Assembly: GCA_002317155.1 (NCBI GenBank)
Contig: DCIR01000012.1
Span: 23,976 to 87,975, forward strand
Origin: Lachnospiraceae bacterium UBA1721
GTDB lineage: Bacteria > Bacillota > Clostridia > Lachnospirales > Lachnospiraceae
Direction of reading: 5' to 3'
DNA length: 64,000 nucleotides
Part shown: one piece after another, positions 21,676 to 31,683 of the stretch
Position numbering within the stretch: the first letter of the stretch is position 1
How the letters are laid out: each line of letters starts with the position of its first letter
The notes under the pieces: generated by a model
What the model was told of the DNA's origin: nothing
Database searches by the model: none
The model's input: only the letters and a program-made list of their open reading frames with translations
Program-made: the position numbers and the translations under genes

Positions 21676-23496
21676 TCATAAAGCTTCGTATGTAAATTCC
21701 TCATGCAAAGCATCATACATAATCATCTGATCCTGTCCGTCAACATTACGATGCTCTTCGATTACACGAGCTATCCTTCCGTCTTCTAAGCTAAAATCCA
21801 CATAAGAACGTGCTGCACGTCTGGGGACTCTCAAACGATTGAACTTGGTACCTGCAGGTATTTTGACAATATTACATTTCTCCATGCTAATGTCTACATT
21901 GTCCTCCTGAACAGGAACTATCCATACATTAATATCATTCTCGCTACTGAATGCAAATAACTCTTCAGCGAACTCTTCGTCGATATAATAGTAATTTTCT
22001 CCGGTCTCAGTAAGCTGTGGCTTAACTAAATTGTTAAGATGGTACTCCGCAGTAGTAACAACCGGTCCCAAACAGTTAATTGCTCTCTTAAGCATAAGCT
22101 GAGTAGGATCAAGTACTTCCCCTCGCTCATATATGATTCCGACATTAATGTTCTCCATAGATACATTTCCGTTTCTGTGCAGACGGAATGCACTTATGGG
22201 AGCCACACTGTAATCTTCATCGTTGGCAACAAGCCACAATGCATCCACATCATCAAAATGAATAAAGAGAACATCTCGGCTAGCCTGCTTTAACACACTG
22301 CCGATATCCTTCTTTCTGTTGCCCCAAATCAGGAACTCATCCTCATGAAGAAGTTCATCTGTTGTAACCTTAAGATGTATAGCCTCTTCACCATGCTTGA
22401 CCGAATACAGTATGTCACTGTCAATCTGCATCATAAATGCTTTAGGCAACGAGTCACAATCTATTACTATTGCCTTATCCTTGGATCTGCCCATTGAGCT
22501 GAATATTTTCTGGTCGTTTTTCGCCTTTTCTCCAAGCTGATTCTCGATCTCATCATACTGTGCTTCAGCATGCTTAAGCTGTCTGTACAGGGTATCCATT
22601 CCAAACATCTCAGACAAAGTCATTGCAAGCTTACTGCCGGAATTGATAAACACCTTCCATAGATTACTTATTCCATACAGAACAAGTACTACTCCCAATA
22701 TTAGATACTCACGCATAAATGCAATCAGAGCCGCACCGACAATTATAAATAATATTCCCGGGAAAATACGACCATGCATTCTGTTTATTGATTTTTGAAT
22801 TCTCTCGATTCTTCTGATTGCTATATCTCGCTCATGCTCGAGATTGACATATTTTTTCTTGGCAGGTTTATTATAAACGCGTATAAGTCCATCCGGGCCC
22901 GCCTCAGCATTACTATCACTACGTGCTGCCAGTGCCTCTTCATCAATATATCTGACCTTAAAGCTTCCAAAAAATCCGGCAAGTGAAACCAATGTCAGTA
23001 ATATTGCCAAAAGGCATCTGTTCATTGCAGCATTATCTACTGTCTGCTCAATCTCAAATCCCTTGATAACACAGTTAGGATCCAAACCGGCATATTCATA
23101 AGCCTCTGTAGCAAATGAACTTCTTCTTTTTACCACCTTGCCGATGAATGATATAGTCTCATTACCGTCTTCTTTGAAATATTCAAGTTCTGTCTTCAGC
23201 GGAATCTCGTGTACACCTATCTCTATATATTCATTTTCCTGCAGCTTAACTACAAAATACTGATAATCGTACAGATAATTCACTCCCAGAAATTCGCCTG
23301 TACTAGCCTCGTACTCACTTATATTCACGCTGACATATGTATTTGCTTTGAGATTGTCCGCCCGTAAATAAGACATATCCAGCGGATGCATATAGTTACG
23401 CCAATCCTGTCCGAAAATAAATGAAAAATATGCGCCGGCCAGAAATGCAATGGCATACACTATTGTTTTTACTGACATTGAAATCTTTTTTTTCAT
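21676..23496 (-). CDS. Hypothetical multi-domain membrane protein (606 aa)
   Basis: Long ORF with about 4 TM segments and a ~290-aa soluble C-terminal region; no family recognised. Confidence 0.75.
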   Translation of the reverse strand: MKKKISMSVKTIVYAIAFLAGAYFSFIFGQDWRNYMHPLDMSYLRADNLKANTYVSVNISEYEASTGEFLGVNYLYDYQYFVVKLQENEYIEIGVHEIPLKTELEYFKEDGNETISFIGKVVKRRSSFATEAYEYAGLDPNCVIKGFEIEQTVDNAAMNRCLLAILLTLVSLAGFFGSFKVRYIDEEALAARSDSNAEAGPDGLIRVYNKPAKKKYVNLEHERDIAIRRIERIQKSINRMHGRIFPGILFIIVGAALIAFMREYLILGVVLVLYGISNLWKVFINSGSKLAMTLSEMFGMDTLYRQLKHAEAQYDEIENQLGEKAKNDQKIFSSMGRSKDKAIVIDCDSLPKAFMMQIDSDILYSVKHGEEAIHLKVTTDELLHEDEFLIWGNRKKDIGSVLKQASRDVLFIHFDDVDALWLVANDEDYSVAPISAFRLHRNGNVSMENINVGIIYERGEVLDPTQLMLKRAINCLGPVVTTAEYHLNNLVKPQLTETGENYYYIDEEFAEELFAFSSENDINVWIVPVQEDNVDISMEKCNIVKIPAGTKFNRLRVPRRAARSYVDFSLEDGRIARVIEEHRNVDGQDQMIMYDALHEEFTYEAL

Positions 23497-23548: not shown

Positions 23549-24544
23549 CTACTCTATGCCGAGATATTTTTTCAGTTCAGGCATTATAGCCAACGCATCA
23601 TTATATCCCTCGTAATAAAGAGTTCCCAATTTTTCCATATCTTTTTCAAGTCTTCCGACTTCAACAGCCTTGCCGGGAATAATCTGGAAAAGCTTACCCT
23701 GCTCTTCCATCTCCTCGATAATATCGCACTCTTTGTTGTACTCAAGGTTACTGTTGCGAAGTGTCTCGGCAAACTGAGGATACTTGCGATATACAAGTGC
23801 CTGTGATCTAACAATCTTAGGCTTCTTGCGATACTCTCTGTCTCTGGTTCGTACAACAACAATTTTATCGAAGCCACCATCTATCGCAAACTGAATAGGA
23901 ATTCTTCGGCTTACACCACCATCGAGGCATTTTTCTCCATCCACCTCTACGGGAAGAGACAAAATCTGCATTGCAGATGATGCTCTGCAGGCCTCAATAA
24001 TATCGGGGCATATACCTTTCTCATAGTAAACCTGCTGCCCGTTATCACAGCTGGTTGCAGCCGCAATAAATCTTCTGTCGGGTCTGTTAAAAGTATCAAA
24101 GTCAAAAGGATCCTTGGCGTCAACCACATCAAATACAAACTTAAATCCGTATATACTCTTATTTCTCTTAATTGCCCTGACACCAAAATATCGGGGGTCA
24201 TGTCTGTATGTGAGCGTAATTCTCGCACTACGACCTATCTGACCCGACACATAATTAAGTCCATTAAGTGCACCCGCAGATACACCGACGACCACAGATA
24301 AGTTAATATCATTCTCCATGAGCGCATCAAGTACACCACTTGTATACACACCTCTGAGCGCACCGCCCTCAAGCACAAGGCATCCCTGCGTGATCTTATC
24401 AGAAGCTCTTCCGTTCGGTAATTCAGCAAGACCTGAAAAAACTTTCTTCTCTTTTCTGGCCTTATCTCTTCGCTTCATTCTTTTTCTTATATAACTGGTA
24501 ATCTTATTACCCTTCTTTTCTTCTGTCATAACATTTTTCGTCAT
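23549..24544 (-). CDS. Patatin-like phospholipase
   Basis: EGGALRG, GVSAG (GxSxG), DGG. Confidence 0.92.
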   Translation of the reverse strand: MTKNVMTEEKKGNKITSYIRKRMKRRDKARKEKKVFSGLAELPNGRASDKITQGCLVLEGGALRGVYTSGVLDALMENDINLSVVVGVSAGALNGLNYVSGQIGRSARITLTYRHDPRYFGVRAIKRNKSIYGFKFVFDVVDAKDPFDFDTFNRPDRRFIAAATSCDNGQQVYYEKGICPDIIEACRASSAMQILSLPVEVDGEKCLDGGVSRRIPIQFAIDGGFDKIVVVRTRDREYRKKPKIVRSQALVYRKYPQFAETLRNSNLEYNKECDIIEEMEEQGKLFQIIPGKAVEVGRLEKDMEKLGTLYYEGYNDALAIMPELKKYLGIE

Positions 24545-24615
24545 AATGATTTAATGCCACAATCCCCTCATATTTTATCATTAACTAATATATTATAACT
24601 CAAAATCCAATAAAA

Positions 24616-24639
24616 AAGAATCTCGTTTACGAGATTCTT
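24616..24639 (-). terminator. Second hairpin downstream of the tRNA
   Basis: AAGAATCTCG-TTTA-CGAGATTCTT, U-tract on the minus strand. Confidence 0.7.
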
Positions 24640-24651
24640 CAACCACAAAAA

Positions 24652-24687
24652 AAATCCTAGAAACCTTAATTTAGGTATCTAGGATTT
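24652..24687 (-). terminator. tRNA terminator
   Basis: AAATCCTAGA...TCTAGGATTT, followed by a T run on the minus strand immediately 3' of the tRNA. Confidence 0.8.
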
Positions 24688-24692
24688 ATGCG

Positions 24693-24767
24693 TCGGAGTG
24701 ACAAGATTCGAACTTGCGGCCTCCGCCTCCCTAAGACGGCGCTCTAACCAAACTGAGCCACACCCCG
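24693..24767 (-). tRNA. tRNA-Pro, anticodon AGG (CCA not encoded)
   Basis: CGGGGTG TG GCTC AGTTTGGTTA GAGC G CCGTC TTAGGGA GGCGG AGGCC GCAAG TTCGAAT CTTGT CACTCCG A. Full cloverleaf with C1-G72, A73, G37; loop U32 U33 A34 G35 G36. Confidence 0.93.
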
Positions 24768-24822
24768 TGACAACGTTGATATATTATCACGGTATAAGAT
24801 TTTGGTCAAGCACTTTTTTAAA

Positions 24823-26784
24823 TTATTTATCCATAATCTTTCGGCGTTTGTCTTTATTGTAAGATGAACCGTCCAATCTTACATCTTTGACAGCCTTTTT
24901 AAGCTCGCGCCTGCTCTGCTCACGATTCTTTTCCTTGATGCTTTTCCTTGCATCCTTGGTAAGCCTTGAAGTGTCGCTGTCAGCATTTCTTCTCTGTCTT
25001 CTTCCAAGATTCTCACCATCGCGGTCTCTTCTGAAGCCACGCTTGTCATCACGTATAGCATCACCGCGACTCCTTCTTCCGTCAGCTTCCTTACTGCCAC
25101 GGCCTACACCTCGGTCTTCTCTACGACTATCGCGCATGCCGCCGCGATCTCCACGACCTTCACTGCGTCTGTCTCCACGGCCATCCTTGCGTTCAGAGCG
25201 TCCGTCCTTACGTCCGTCTCCACGACCGCCATTTCTGTCACCACGACCTTCACCGCGGCCACTACGTCCACTTCTTCCACCCTCGGAATACTCAAGCATG
25301 TCACTTCCGGAGAATCTGCTTGCGCGAGATCTTCTGTCATGCTTAGGCTTATCGGCAAGATTGATCTCCGGCTCTTCCTCTCCATCTGAAGCTGACAAGC
25401 TTCCCAGTTCCTTTATAAGGAATGAAGCCGCAAATTTCTCCACATCAATCTCATTCTTCTCACAAAAAACTCTGAGAACTTTTACCATCTTATCAATAGC
25501 AGTGCTGGGCGTGGTGGTATCCACATAGCCTTCAGCTTCATTTTGTAATGCTGCTGCCTGCGCCGCTTCTTTAGCTTCCGCACACTGTGCCTTGTATACC
25601 TCTAAGATATTGTTAAGCACCTTAAGCTCACGCGCTTTTTTTATCTCGCCTGCACCCGGAATTTTTTTCTCTTCCATCTTAGTGTGACAAACAGCTTCAA
25701 TATCTCTGATTCTTCTAAAATCCTTGCTTCTGCAAAGTGTATGTGATGTACCTTCTTTTCCGCTTCTTCCGGTTCTTCCGATACGATGCACATAATGCTC
25801 TGTCTCAAGAGGTATGTCATAGTTAAATACCGCTTCGACATTATCTACATCAATACCTCTTGCCGCAATATCCGTTGCAATAAGTATGCTTAAGCTTCCG
25901 CTTCTGAAGCGTCCCATAACCGAATCTCTCTGCTTCTGAGTCAGGTCACCGTGAAGTCCTGCCGCTGCATATCCTTCATTTACAAGATAAGCTGCCAGCT
26001 CATCAACCATCCCCTTGGTATTGCAGAAAATAATACTTCTGTTGTAATTGTAATATTTGATAAGTCTGCAGAGAGCCAAGGTCTTATATTCCTGCTTCAC
26101 AGGATAGTAATACTGCGCGATACGATCGATTGTAAGCTCTTTTTTTGTAATCTTGATATACAAAGGATCATTCTGGAACTGACCCGTGATTTTTAAGATT
26201 TCATCGGGCATAGTAGCAGAAAACAGACAGGTCTGGTGTTCCTGTTCAATTGCCCCGAGAATGACCTCCATGTCCTCACGGAAGCCCATCTTAAGCATCT
26301 CATCAGCCTCATCCAAAACAACCAGCTTAACAGAATCCATCTTGATGGTATGGCGGCGCATATGATCCATCACTCTACCGGGCGTGCCGACAATAATCTG
26401 CACCCCTTTAAGACCGCGAATTTGGATAGAGATATCCTGTCCTCCATACACAGTAAGAGTTTTTACATTATGCATATATTTTGCAAAACTTCTGATTTCG
26501 TTGGTCGCCTGAACCGCAAGTTCTCTCGTGGGACACAGTATAACTGCCTGAAGGCTCTTAACACTTGGATCCACCATCTGAAGGATAGGGAGTCCGAAAG
26601 CCGCAGTTTTACCGGTACCGGTCTGAGCCTGTCCTATTACGTCGCGGCCTGTGAGTAACGCTGGTATTGCCTGCTCCTGTATGGGGGTCAGCTTGACAAA
26701 CCCCATGTCCGCAACCGCTCTTTTTATTTCTTCATTTATATCAAGGTCCGCATAAAGGGACTCTGAGAAAGCTTCTTCTGCCAT
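24823..26784 (-). CDS. DEAD-box RNA helicase (DeaD/CshA-like) with R/G/D-rich C-terminal tail
   Basis: Q-motif, AQTGTGKT, PTRELA, TPGR, DEAD, SAT, ARGID, HRIGRTGR. Confidence 0.95.
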   Translation of the reverse strand: MAEEAFSESLYADLDINEEIKRAVADMGFVKLTPIQEQAIPALLTGRDVIGQAQTGTGKTAAFGLPILQMVDPSVKSLQAVILCPTRELAVQATNEIRSFAKYMHNVKTLTVYGGQDISIQIRGLKGVQIIVGTPGRVMDHMRRHTIKMDSVKLVVLDEADEMLKMGFREDMEVILGAIEQEHQTCLFSATMPDEILKITGQFQNDPLYIKITKKELTIDRIAQYYYPVKQEYKTLALCRLIKYYNYNRSIIFCNTKGMVDELAAYLVNEGYAAAGLHGDLTQKQRDSVMGRFRSGSLSILIATDIAARGIDVDNVEAVFNYDIPLETEHYVHRIGRTGRSGKEGTSHTLCRSKDFRRIRDIEAVCHTKMEEKKIPGAGEIKKARELKVLNNILEVYKAQCAEAKEAAQAAALQNEAEGYVDTTTPSTAIDKMVKVLRVFCEKNEIDVEKFAASFLIKELGSLSASDGEEEPEINLADKPKHDRRSRASRFSGSDMLEYSEGGRSGRSGRGEGRGDRNGGRGDGRKDGRSERKDGRGDRRSEGRGDRGGMRDSRREDRGVGRGSKEADGRRSRGDAIRDDKRGFRRDRDGENLGRRQRRNADSDTSRLTKDARKSIKEKNREQSRRELKKAVKDVRLDGSSYNKDKRRKIMDK

Positions 26785-29505: not shown

Positions 29506-31683
29506 ATGAAGATCATCAAAAGAAGCGGTGCGGAAGTAGAATTCGACAGTCAGAAAATCATTACCGCGGTTTCCAAGGCTAACCTCACAGTTATCCCCAG
29601 CGACCGTATGTCAGATCTTGAGATTCGCCGAATTGCTGAAGACGTAGAAATCGCTGTATCAAATATGAACAGATCACTCAGCGTGGAAGAAATCCAGGAT
29701 ATCGTTGAGAATCAGATTATGAACCGCCGCGCTTTTGAAGTTGCACGTCACTATATCACCTATCGTTATAAGAGAGAGATGGTTCGTAAGTCTAATACTA
29801 CCGACGAACAGATTCTCAGCCTTATCGAGTGCAATAACGAGGAAGTTAAGCAGGAAAATTCTAACAAGAATCCTACAATCGTTAGCGTACAGCGTGACTA
29901 TATGGCAGGTGAAGTAAGTAAGGATATTACCCGTCGTTTCCTTATTCCCAGCGACATTGCTCAGGCTCATGAGCAGGGACTTATCCACTTCCACGATGCT
30001 GACTATTTTGCTCAGCATATGCATAACTGTGATCTCGTTAACCTCGAGGATATGCTCCAGAACGGAACTGTTATCAGCGGCACCATGATTGAAAAGCCCC
30101 ACAGCTTCTCAACCGCATGTAATATCGCTACACAGATTATCGCTCAGGTTGCTTCATGCCAGTACGGCGGACAGAGTATTTCACTTACTCATCTCGCTCC
30201 CTTTGTAGATATCAGCCGTAAAAAGATTCGCGAGCAGGTAATCACCGAGTTCTCTGCTATCAAGGCTGATATTACTGAAGAAGAAATCAACACCATCACC
30301 GAGAAGCGTCTCCGCGAGGAAGTACGTAACGGTGTTCAGATGGTTCAGTACCAGGTTGTTACCCTTATGACCACCAATGGTCAGGCTCCTTTCGTTACCG
30401 TATTTATGTACCTCAACGAAGCTCGCAACGAGCAGGAAAAGGATGACCTTGCTCTTATCATCGAAGAAATGCTCTGCCAGAGATATCAGGGCGTTAAGAA
30501 TGAGAAGGGTATCTGGATTACACCTGCATTCCCTAAGCTCATCTATGTTCTTGAGGAAGATAATATCCGTGAGGACAGCAAATATTACTATCTCACCAAG
30601 CTCGCTGCAAAGTGTACCGCTAAGCGTCTTGTTCCTGACTACATCTCTGAAAAGATTATGATGCAGAACAAGATCGACAAGAACGGTGAAGGTCACTGCT
30701 ACACCTGCATGGGTTGCAGAAGCTTCCTTACACCTTATGTTGATGAGAACGGCAAGCCTAAGTATTACGGTCGTTTCAATCAGGGTGTTGTTACCGTTAA
30801 CCTTGTTGACATCGGACTTTCAGCAGAAAAGAATCTCGACAGATTCTGGGAAATCTTTGATGACCGCATGAAGCTCTGCCATCGTGCACTTCAGGCTCGT
30901 CACGAAAGACTTAAGGGAACCGTATCCGATGTTGCTCCTATTCTTTGGCAGCACGGTGCTCTCCTTCGTCTTGAAAAGGGTGAGACCATTGACAAGTACC
31001 TTACCGGCGGTTACTCTACTCTCTCACTTGGATATGCAGGTCTTTGGGAGTGCGTATACAGCCTTATCGGCAAAAAGCTTACCGAGCCCCAGGGTGAAGA
31101 GCTTGGTCTTCAGATTATGAAAAAGCTCAACGAGTACACTTCTCGTTGGAAGGCTGAAGAAAATATTGACTACTCTCTCTATGGAACTCCCCTTGAGAGT
31201 ACTACATATAAGTTCGCTAAATGTCTCCAGAAGCGCTTCGGAATTATCCCCGGCGTAACTGACAGAAACTATATCACCAACAGCTATCATGTACATGTAA
31301 CTGAGAACATCGATGCATTTTCAAAGCTTGCTCTCGAGTCTAAGTTCCAGGTACTTTCACCCGGCGGTGCTATCTCTTATGTAGAGGTTCCCAACATGCA
31401 GGGTAACCTTGATGCTGTACTTTCAATCATGCAGTTCATCTATGACCACATCATGTATGCAGAGCTTAACACCAAGAGTGATTACTGCCAGGAATGTGGT
31501 TTCGACGGTGAGATTGAAATCAATGAAAATGAGGACGGCAAGCTGATTTGGAAGTGCCCTAACTGCGGCAACACCGATCAGAACAAGCTCAATGTTGCAA
31601 GACGTACCTGTGGTTACATCGGAACTCAGTTCTGGAATCAGGGACGTACACAGGAAATCAAGGAGCGTGTTCTTCACCTCTAA
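29506..31683 (+). CDS. nrdD: Anaerobic (class III) ribonucleoside-triphosphate reductase with ATP cone
   Basis: IIKRSG ATP cone, MGCRSF, CQECG...CPNCG, RRTCGYIG glycyl-radical motif. Confidence 0.97.
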   Translation: MKIIKRSGAEVEFDSQKIITAVSKANLTVIPSDRMSDLEIRRIAEDVEIAVSNMNRSLSVEEIQDIVENQIMNRRAFEVARHYITYRYKREMVRKSNTTDEQILSLIECNNEEVKQENSNKNPTIVSVQRDYMAGEVSKDITRRFLIPSDIAQAHEQGLIHFHDADYFAQHMHNCDLVNLEDMLQNGTVISGTMIEKPHSFSTACNIATQIIAQVASCQYGGQSISLTHLAPFVDISRKKIREQVITEFSAIKADITEEEINTITEKRLREEVRNGVQMVQYQVVTLMTTNGQAPFVTVFMYLNEARNEQEKDDLALIIEEMLCQRYQGVKNEKGIWITPAFPKLIYVLEEDNIREDSKYYYLTKLAAKCTAKRLVPDYISEKIMMQNKIDKNGEGHCYTCMGCRSFLTPYVDENGKPKYYGRFNQGVVTVNLVDIGLSAEKNLDRFWEIFDDRMKLCHRALQARHERLKGTVSDVAPILWQHGALLRLEKGETIDKYLTGGYSTLSLGYAGLWECVYSLIGKKLTEPQGEELGLQIMKKLNEYTSRWKAEENIDYSLYGTPLESTTYKFAKCLQKRFGIIPGVTDRNYITNSYHVHVTENIDAFSKLALESKFQVLSPGGAISYVEVPNMQGNLDAVLSIMQFIYDHIMYAELNTKSDYCQECGFDGEIEINENEDGKLIWKCPNCGNTDQNKLNVARRTCGYIGTQFWNQGRTQEIKERVLHL

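Follow-up and report, generated by a model that had tools for sequence, protein, structure and literature searches.

According to current accounts, bacteria avoid anticodons that start with A, save for that of tRNA-Arg(ACG) and, as known exceptions, those of Leu(AAG) and Thr(AGU); in a 2026 preprint surveying GtRNAdb, the last two are the only bacterial ANN tRNAs named as retained (10.64898/2026.05.15.725136). The window analysed here, that is, the whole 64-kb stretch of DNA (positions 23976-87975 of contig C1 of draft genome G000), contains a single tRNA gene, which ARAGORN calls at 24692-24767 on the minus strand as a tRNA-Pro with anticodon agg. Is this a real and working gene, does it stand in for the usual tRNA-Pro(GGG), and is its A34 read as such or deaminated to inosine (I34)? 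The answers touch the open question of why I34 decoding expanded in eukaryotes and not in bacteria.

The gene and its immediate surroundings comprise the following features:

24693-24767, minus strand: tRNA-Pro(AGG) gene, 75 nt, without encoded CCA (ARAGORN, Rfam, cloverleaf fold, copies in the genus)
24730-24732, minus strand: anticodon, with A34 at 24732, G35 at 24731 and G36 at 24730 (plus strand CCT)
24781-24809, minus strand: promoter-like site, TTGACC, 17 nt, TG-extended TAATAT (consensus scan)
24647-24687, minus strand: first terminator-like hairpin (AAAUCCUAGA.ACC / GGU.UCUAGGAUUU) followed by U8 (ViennaRNA, -17.7 kcal/mol)
24605-24640, minus strand: second terminator-like hairpin with an 11-bp stem, followed by a U-run (terminator scan; fold -13.5 kcal/mol)
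24823-26784, minus strand: DEAD-box helicase, 653 aa, directly upstream of the tRNA promoter
23549-24544, minus strand: patatin-like protein gene

In the ARAGORN call, which spans 76 nt, the anticodon is at position 36, and the segment 24693-24767 matches the full-length Rfam tRNA model RF00005 on the minus strand with 60 bits (gathering score 29, E 2.8e-11). The RNA string is CGGGGUGUGGCUCAG...UUAGGGA..., its 5' part being CGGGGUG-UG-GCUC-AGUUUGGUUA-GAGC-G-CCGUC-UUAGGGA-GGCGG and its 3' part, after GGCGG, AGGCC-GCAAG-UUCGAAU-CUUGU-CACUCCG-A. Every stem is paired, with an acceptor stem running from C1-G72 to G7-C66 and A73 as discriminator, and the 5-bp anticodon stem CCGUC/GGCGG closes the 7-nt loop U32-U33-A34-G35-G36-G37-A38. 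ProRS recognizes G35, G36, A73 and C1:G72 as identity elements; all of them are present, plus G37 for m1G37. An earlier, sequence-only reading of this DNA had described the cloverleaf with C1-G72, A73, G35/G36/G37 and the loop UUAGGGA, and had credited the gene with its own terminators; it was correct on both counts, as borne out by ARAGORN, RF00005, the minus-strand reading and the two 3' hairpins with U-runs. The promoter-like site lies upstream, with about 14 nt between its end and the 5' end of the tRNA, and the setting is an ordinary chromosomal context with a stand-alone gene, not a prophage. The tRNA is presumably expressed and charged with proline.

To what extent the gene is shared was addressed in 40 relatives, 24 of them other species of the host genus. 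Copies 92-100% identical are found in at least 19 of these 24 species, and ARAGORN reads the anticodon as AGG at 20/20 loci in the 19 genomes. The anticodon arm CCGTC-TTAGGGA-GGCGG is invariant across the 20 loci, the T-stem pair 51-63 occurs in three isoforms (A-U, U-A and G-C) and is thus compensatory, and each copy has its own promoter-like boxes (TTGCAT/TTGACC and TATAAT-like, at equal distance from the tRNA) and its own terminator hairpin, in flanks that are otherwise unrelated. Because the anticodon arm is invariant, the 51-63 changes are compensatory and each locus carries its own promoter and terminator, the gene appears to be under selection; we take it to be vertically inherited. The tRNA sequence is identical in MAGs named Acetatifactor sp., and the commonest variant of the genus is that of Waltera acetigignens; the host genus would accordingly be an Acetatifactor/Waltera-like one within Lachnospiraceae.

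These data bear on the simplest alternative, namely that AGG is an assembly or sequencing error, or else belongs to a decaying or mobile-element copy that is idle in translation. The draft state of the genome (98 contigs, 91% complete), with 26 tRNAs only, speaks for such an error; nevertheless, AGG recurs in 20 independent loci of the genus and in more than 100 other species, the substitutions in the intact cloverleaf are compensatory, the promoter is conserved and so are the terminators, the genome has no fallback GGG gene, and the neighbours are housekeeping-type genes (DEAD-box helicase, patatin-like) rather than prophage genes. We consider this explanation extremely improbable. A singleton AGG among relatives with GGG, the case against itself that the sequence-only reading had raised, is likewise ruled out by the 20/20 AGG loci in 19 other species. 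The segment 24693-24767 is a real, conserved and intact tRNA-Pro gene with the rare anticodon AGG.

The remaining tRNAs of the genome define the decoding context. The draft (2.80 Mb, 98 contigs, 40% GC, 91% complete, 6695 N) lacks some core regions; rpoB was not found in the assembly by tblastn, and 26 tRNAs only were recovered. The Pro box is nonetheless complete in kind, with UGG, CGG and AGG; neither Pro(GGG) nor Leu(GAG) is among the 26 tRNAs. Other A34 tRNAs in the genome are Arg(ACG) and two identical Leu(AAG) genes, both outside the window:

C20:34862-34945: first Leu(AAG) gene of the draft genome
C20:51492-51575: second Leu(AAG) gene of the draft genome

The whole-genome tRNA list, which the sequence-only reading had suggested as a check, thus returns UGG, CGG and AGG but not GGG for proline, together with Arg(ACG) and the two copies of Leu(AAG). 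The three A34 loops (CU-ACG-GA in Arg, CU-AAG-GA in Leu and UU-AGG-GA in Pro) share the form Y32-U33-A34-N35-G36-G37-A38. Leu(UAG) and Leu(CAG) of the genome have U38, and all its Pro isoacceptors have U32 and A38.

Leu(AAG) extends far beyond this genome. In a survey of 301 Lachnospiraceae genomes, one per genus, anchored on GGYAKAC, Leu(AAG) with the loop CUAAGGA was found in 245/301 genera, among those with Pro(AGG) and those with Pro(GGG) alike, and no credible Leu(GAG) was found in any of them. Leu(AAG) is thus nearly family-wide in Lachnospiraceae. Our literature search found no description of this distribution; the groups named there are Lactobacillales, Mycoplasma and Prochlorococcus.

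For Pro(AGG), one genome per GTDB species was scanned with YTAGGGR followed by a Pro-like variable loop and T-arm, which gave at least 120 matches; at least about 110 of those listed were confirmed by ARAGORN as tRNA-Pro(AGG). Most of the matches listed belong to Lachnospiraceae (Butyrivibrio, Roseburia, Acetatifactor, Herbinix, Anaerocolumna and others) and neighbouring Clostridia, with Cytophagales as a second block and others scattered. Cultured carriers include Butyrivibrio proteoclasticus P18, Butyrivibrio sp. NC3005, Waltera acetigignens, [Eubacterium] cellulosolvens LD2006, Lachnospiraceae bacterium COE1 and Stecheria intestinalis. No paper describing a natural tRNA-Pro(AGG) in Lachnospiraceae was found in the literature search.

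A second survey covered the 301 Lachnospiraceae genomes, one per genus, allowing A or G at position 34 and any base at 38, and 158 genera matched. The 146 listed of these 158 fall into 70 with AGG alone and 76 with GGG alone, and in none of them do the two occur together. At position 38, AGG genes have A (73/73), whereas GGG genes have G (75) or U (2). In 18 AGG genera the 3' half of the gene is identical to the local GGG type (CCGAG/CCGGG-AGGTC-GCAGG), the two differing only at 34 and 38, and in these genes with a GGG-like backbone G38 to A38 accompanies G34 to A34 in 18/18 cases. Mutual exclusivity of AGG and GGG in Lachnospiraceae and coupling of positions 34 and 38 are shown by these counts, and in roughly one in four genera of the family AGG has taken the place of the customary GGG tRNA. 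The sequence-only reading had called for such a survey of relatives, and had proposed an expanded A34 set peculiar to this lineage. The expanded set stands, with Arg(ACG), two Leu(AAG) and Pro(AGG) in one genome; the restriction to one lineage does not, the replacement being recurrent and on the scale of the family. We are almost certain that the gene encodes a working tRNA-Pro that replaced Pro(GGG); it would read CCU and CCC in its place, beside Pro(UGG) and Pro(CGG).

The coupling to A38 is not universal. In eight Cytophagales genomes (G422, G426, G447, G462, G481, G497, G510 and G529) the AGG tRNA has U38 (loop UAGGGU) and is built on the local GGG backbone, and the existence of these tRNAs makes the species-wide scan, with its R at 38, a biased one. 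These genomes may be naturally unmodified A34 decoders. Three of the eight are about 1 Mb in size.

How, then, is A34 read in Lachnospiraceae? Our preferred reading, to which we give a probability of roughly 0.6, is that A34 is deaminated to I34, the mature form being tRNA-Pro(IGG). The single TadA of the cell would carry out the deamination, and the product would read CCU, CCC and, weakly, CCA, by analogy with Arg(ICG) in all bacteria and Leu(IAG) in streptococci. In this regard, the contacts of S. aureus TadA extend over all loop bases, 32 to 38 (PMC7713142), and the enzyme requires U33, A34 and G36 (PMC10586758, PMC7713142). U33, A34, G36, a pyrimidine at 32, a purine at 37 and A38, as found in TadA substrates, are all present in tRNA-Pro(AGG); its base 35 is G and lies outside the known TadA consensus UACG/UAMG. 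Bacterial I34 beyond Arg is known from Leu(AAG) in O. oeni and S. pyogenes (PMC11472039, PMC8072771, PMC13249217), Leu(AAG) being edited by streptococcal and not by E. coli TadA, and the mRNA editing consensus in S. pyogenes is widened to YUAMGRA (PMC11472039); the bacterial TadA substrates demonstrated so far have C35 or A35 (PMC8072771, PMC11472039). Membership of Pro(AGG) in the I34 set, its base 35 being G, would therefore need a further broadening of TadA. When metagenome contigs were searched for a G34 version of the anticodon arm specific to the genus, 0 matches were obtained, a result that is uninformative on inosine.

The alternative is a functional tRNA whose A34 stays unmodified. 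This tRNA would pair with CCU in Watson-Crick fashion and reach CCC, or perhaps all four codons, through A:C pairing or superwobble; A38 would tune the loop for decoding, independently of TadA, and the TadA differences described below would be clade markers or a response to something else. Precedents exist for such a tRNA. Engineered E. coli Pro(AGG) (proL B34A) is expressed, stays unmodified and is harmless (10.64898/2026.05.15.725136); the Salmonella proL G34A mutant of Chen et al. 2002, as far as the citation of it in the same preprint goes, has a functional A34 without a defect in fitness or elongation rate (10.64898/2026.05.15.725136); and the A34 tRNAs Thr(AGU) and Ser(AGA) of O. oeni are unmodified (PMC8072771). 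In addition, U32 and A38 in all Pro isoacceptors of the genome indicate that A38 may be the default. Unmodified A34 leaves unexplained, however, why A38 replaced G38 along with the switch from G34 to A34 on a GGG-like backbone (18/18 genes). We regard an unedited A34 as possible, though a good deal less probable than I34, for this and for the reasons that follow.

Deamination of A34, our preferred reading, puts the weight on the enzyme. The genome has one TadA gene:

C29:27677-28186: TadA, 169 aa, single copy (NF008113, 179.6 bits, cut-off 150)

The protein has the HAE and PCxxC catalytic motifs and finds its best match in S. aureus TadA (2B3J, E 1.4e-56, gapless alignment); the only other match in the genome is a dCMP deaminase. 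Ser140, which contacts U33, and Phe146 and Arg151, which contact G36, are retained. Gly24 corresponds to S. aureus G22 and to E. coli R26, in the pocket for base 35. In the S. aureus enzyme base 35 is solvent-exposed and bonds only to G22's backbone carbonyl, while in E. coli TadA R26 and R152 narrow this pocket and are believed to keep other bases out (PMC10586758).

Another residue of the genome's TadA, Asn106, aligns with E. coli D108 and S. aureus D104. The evolution of adenine base editors began with a change of D108 in the E. coli enzyme. Asn106 was considered as an AGG-specific change and rejected, being family-wide in Lachnospiraceae (44/45 GGG genera). Asn at the equivalent position is also found in S. 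pyogenes.

TadA was extracted from 153 Lachnospiraceae genera, and about 155 positions were ranked by their difference between 66 AGG and 72 GGG genera. The top three associations with Pro state are positions 24, 154 and 153:

TadA Gly24: AGG genera 64/66, GGG genera 22/72 (Fisher p 1e-17)
TadA Lys154: AGG genera 2/66, GGG genera 49/72 (Fisher p 4e-17)
TadA Arg153: AGG genera 46/66, GGG genera 12/72 (Fisher p 2e-10)

Eleven different residues occupy position 24 in GGG genera. An alignment-free check of Gly24, as the residue before the motif E-V-P-x-G, gave p 3e-16. Residues 153 and 154, the equivalents of E. coli E155 and I156, lie on the C-terminal helix just past the G36-contacting Arg. Gly24 combined with a residue other than Lys at 154 is present in 63/66 AGG as against 8/72 GGG genera (p 3e-26) and is seen in all four AGG backbone types. 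The broadened TadA that the sequence-only reading had put forward as a possibility thereby gains indirect support, in that residues of the base-35 pocket and of the C-terminal helix co-vary with Pro(AGG) in Lachnospiraceae. An unmodified A34 leaves unexplained both that Gly24 is found in 64/66 AGG genera and is variable in GGG genera, across repeated transitions, and that the top associations fall at the base-35 pocket and on the helix beside the G36 contact.

Two other causes of this TadA signature were considered and rejected. Leu(AAG) is not the confounder, because AGG and GGG genera both carry it. Base composition is not the cause of Gly24 either, since the slightly lower GC3 of AGG genera (0.48, vs 0.51 in GGG genera) disfavours GGN codons.

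Outside Lachnospiraceae the Gly24 rule does not hold. Residue 24 is N or D in AGG-bearing Defluviitaleaceae, Verrucomicrobia, Stecheria, Clostridiaceae and Christensenella, and that several AGG carriers outside the family lack Gly24 speaks for an unmodified A34. In Cytophagales, Gly24 is found in 54/69 genomes with GGG, in 22/25 with AGG and A38 and in 1/8 with AGG and U38; the last figure indicates that A34 Pro tRNAs persist without the proposed fit of TadA, and thus favours the unmodified tRNA as well. As a replicate of the comparison, Cytophagales could not discriminate, because Gly24 is already common there and the TadA, which ends before residue 153, lacks positions 153/154.

Shared ancestry was controlled for on trees of TadA and of RpoB. 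The tree of TadA only is poorly resolved, with 2 contrasts on supported branches, and has no power. On a TadA tree built without the trait columns, the 19 nearest disjoint AGG/GGG pairs gave 15:0 for Gly24, 14:0 for Arg153 and 12:0 for a residue other than Lys at 154, the next-best position giving 7:0. In the RpoB tree of 65 Lachnospiraceae genera, where a congener (G191) substitutes for the window's own genome, AGG and GGG genera are interleaved and Pro state requires at least 12 parsimony changes. Across 7 well-supported contrasts of this tree the TadA signature changed in the same direction in 4.7 on average and in the opposite direction never (median sign-test p 0.06), and in 10 disjoint pairs Gly24 gave 7:0 (p 0.016), ahead of every other TadA position, and Arg153 gave 6:0. 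An individual case is G269, a GGG genus with Glu24 and Lys-Lys at 153/154, which is nested (support 99-100) among six AGG genera, all with Gly24. The association is correlative, and the controlled tests, with 7-10 contrasts and p values of 0.016-0.06, suggest that TadA changes together with the tRNA.

Codon use provides a further line of evidence. Codons were counted in 2112 long ORFs of the whole genome, and in rpoB of 65 Lachnospiraceae genera:

Pro, whole genome: U-ending 47.5%, C-ending 20.3%, A-ending 8.9%, G-ending 23.3%
Leu CUN, whole genome: U-ending 58.8%, C-ending 15.8%, A-ending 4.0%, G-ending 21.4%
Arg CGN, whole genome: U-ending 56.0%, C-ending 24.7%, A-ending 15.8%, G-ending 3.5%
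Pro, rpoB, AGG genera: U-ending 36%, C-ending 22%, A-ending 11%, G-ending 32%
Pro, rpoB, GGG genera: U-ending 23%, C-ending 12%, A-ending 14%, G-ending 51%

In the whole genome, codon use falls in the order U>C>A in each of the Pro, Leu and Arg boxes, with A-ending codons depleted, whereas the other four-codon boxes differ: for Thr, Ala, Val, Ser and Gly, the A-ending codons are the most frequent ones (34-43%). In rpoB, AGG and GGG genera differ in CCU (p 0.003) and in CCC (p 0.012) across the 65 genera. This pattern fits inosine, since CCC nearly doubles where the cognate GGG tRNA was lost, as expected for I:C pairing; an unmodified A34 leaves the near-doubled use of CCC after the loss of GGG, a perfect CCC reader, unexplained. 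The shift is not proline-specific, because the Leu CUN box of rpoB moves in parallel in AGG genera, CUG falling from 58% to 38% in favour of CUU and CUC; the Arg, Thr, Ala and Gly boxes show no difference between AGG and GGG among the 65 genera. A possible reason for the Leu CUN shift is that the TadA variants of AGG genera also edit Leu(AAG) better.

We thus favour I34 because of the strict coupling of A34 and A38, the shared YUANGGA loop, the constraint on TadA residue 24 and the rise of CCC. In this reading, Lachnospiraceae would first have gained Leu(AAG) family-wide; TadA variants with Gly24 and an altered C-terminal helix (153/154) would then tolerate G35; and in lineages with such a TadA a tRNA-Pro with A34 and A38 could replace the GGG tRNA, repeatedly. 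The wider proposal that about a quarter of Lachnospiraceae genera have a three-substrate I34 system (Arg-ICG, Leu-IAG and Pro-IGG), through natural TadA variants (Gly in the base-35 pocket, reshaped C-terminal helix) that accept any purine or C at position 35, and that the Pro member came and went repeatedly along with the enzyme, has in our estimation an even chance of being right.

The closest known system is Leu(AAG)/IAG of Lactobacillales (S. pyogenes, oral streptococci and O. oeni), where likewise an A34 tRNA of a four-codon box replaces the G34 isoacceptor, with a YUANGRA loop, Arg(ACG) and a single TadA alongside, and codons shift to U- and C-ending ones. Pro(AGG) differs in that base 35 is G rather than A or C, that the amino acid is proline and the hosts are Clostridia, that it was gained or lost many times within Lachnospiraceae, and that I34 is inferred here. 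The eukaryotic cytosolic Pro(AGG)/IGG, served by ADAT2/ADAT3, is alike in anticodon, in replacing GGG and in the expected decoding of CCU, CCC and CCA; the enzyme here is by contrast a homodimeric TadA of 169 aa that keeps the G36-contacting Arg and the U33 contacts and has no ADAT3-like subunit, and the A34 families are three rather than seven or eight.

Salmonella proL G34A and E. coli proL B34A resemble the natural gene in that a bacterial Pro(AGG) harmlessly substitutes for Pro(GGG). These laboratory alleles have a GGG backbone, meet a host TadA with Arg at the base-35 pocket and stay unmodified, whereas the natural Lachnospiraceae gene always has A38, together with a Gly24 TadA. O. oeni Thr(AGU) and Ser(AGA) and Mycoplasma Thr(AGU) are likewise natural bacterial A34 tRNAs of four-codon boxes other than Arg; they are described as unmodified, and the genomes that encode them are reduced or AT-rich, as opposed to 40% GC here, where loop and enzyme features point towards editing.

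The outcome matters in either case, given that in a major family of the gut and rumen Leu(AAG) is near-universal and Pro(GGG) gave way to Pro(AGG) many times, with changes in the base-35 pocket of TadA. If A34 is edited, this would be the first bacterial tRNA-Pro(IGG), and Lachnospiraceae would serve as a living model, step by step, for the widening of a homodimeric TadA towards an ADAT-like editor of several substrates, and would supply natural TadAs whose preference for the +1 base is relaxed, as well as a natural series of related enzyme/tRNA pairs, with cultured members, for dissecting the expansion of deaminase substrates; a modification enzyme would then shape Pro and Leu codon choice in abundant commensals. 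If it is unedited, the family would be the largest natural example of an unmodified A34 decoder.

Some minor observations concern other genes of the window. In the DEAD-box helicase upstream of the tRNA (24823-26784), the helicase domains stop near residue 342 and are followed by a tail of about 300 aa without Pfam match. A 606-aa ORF at 21676-23496 on the minus strand, between M18 aminopeptidase and patatin-like genes, has no Pfam match at E 1e-5. Finally, 29506-31683 on the plus strand encodes an anaerobic ribonucleotide reductase NrdD with ATP-cone, NRDD and glycyl-radical domains, which fits a strict anaerobe.
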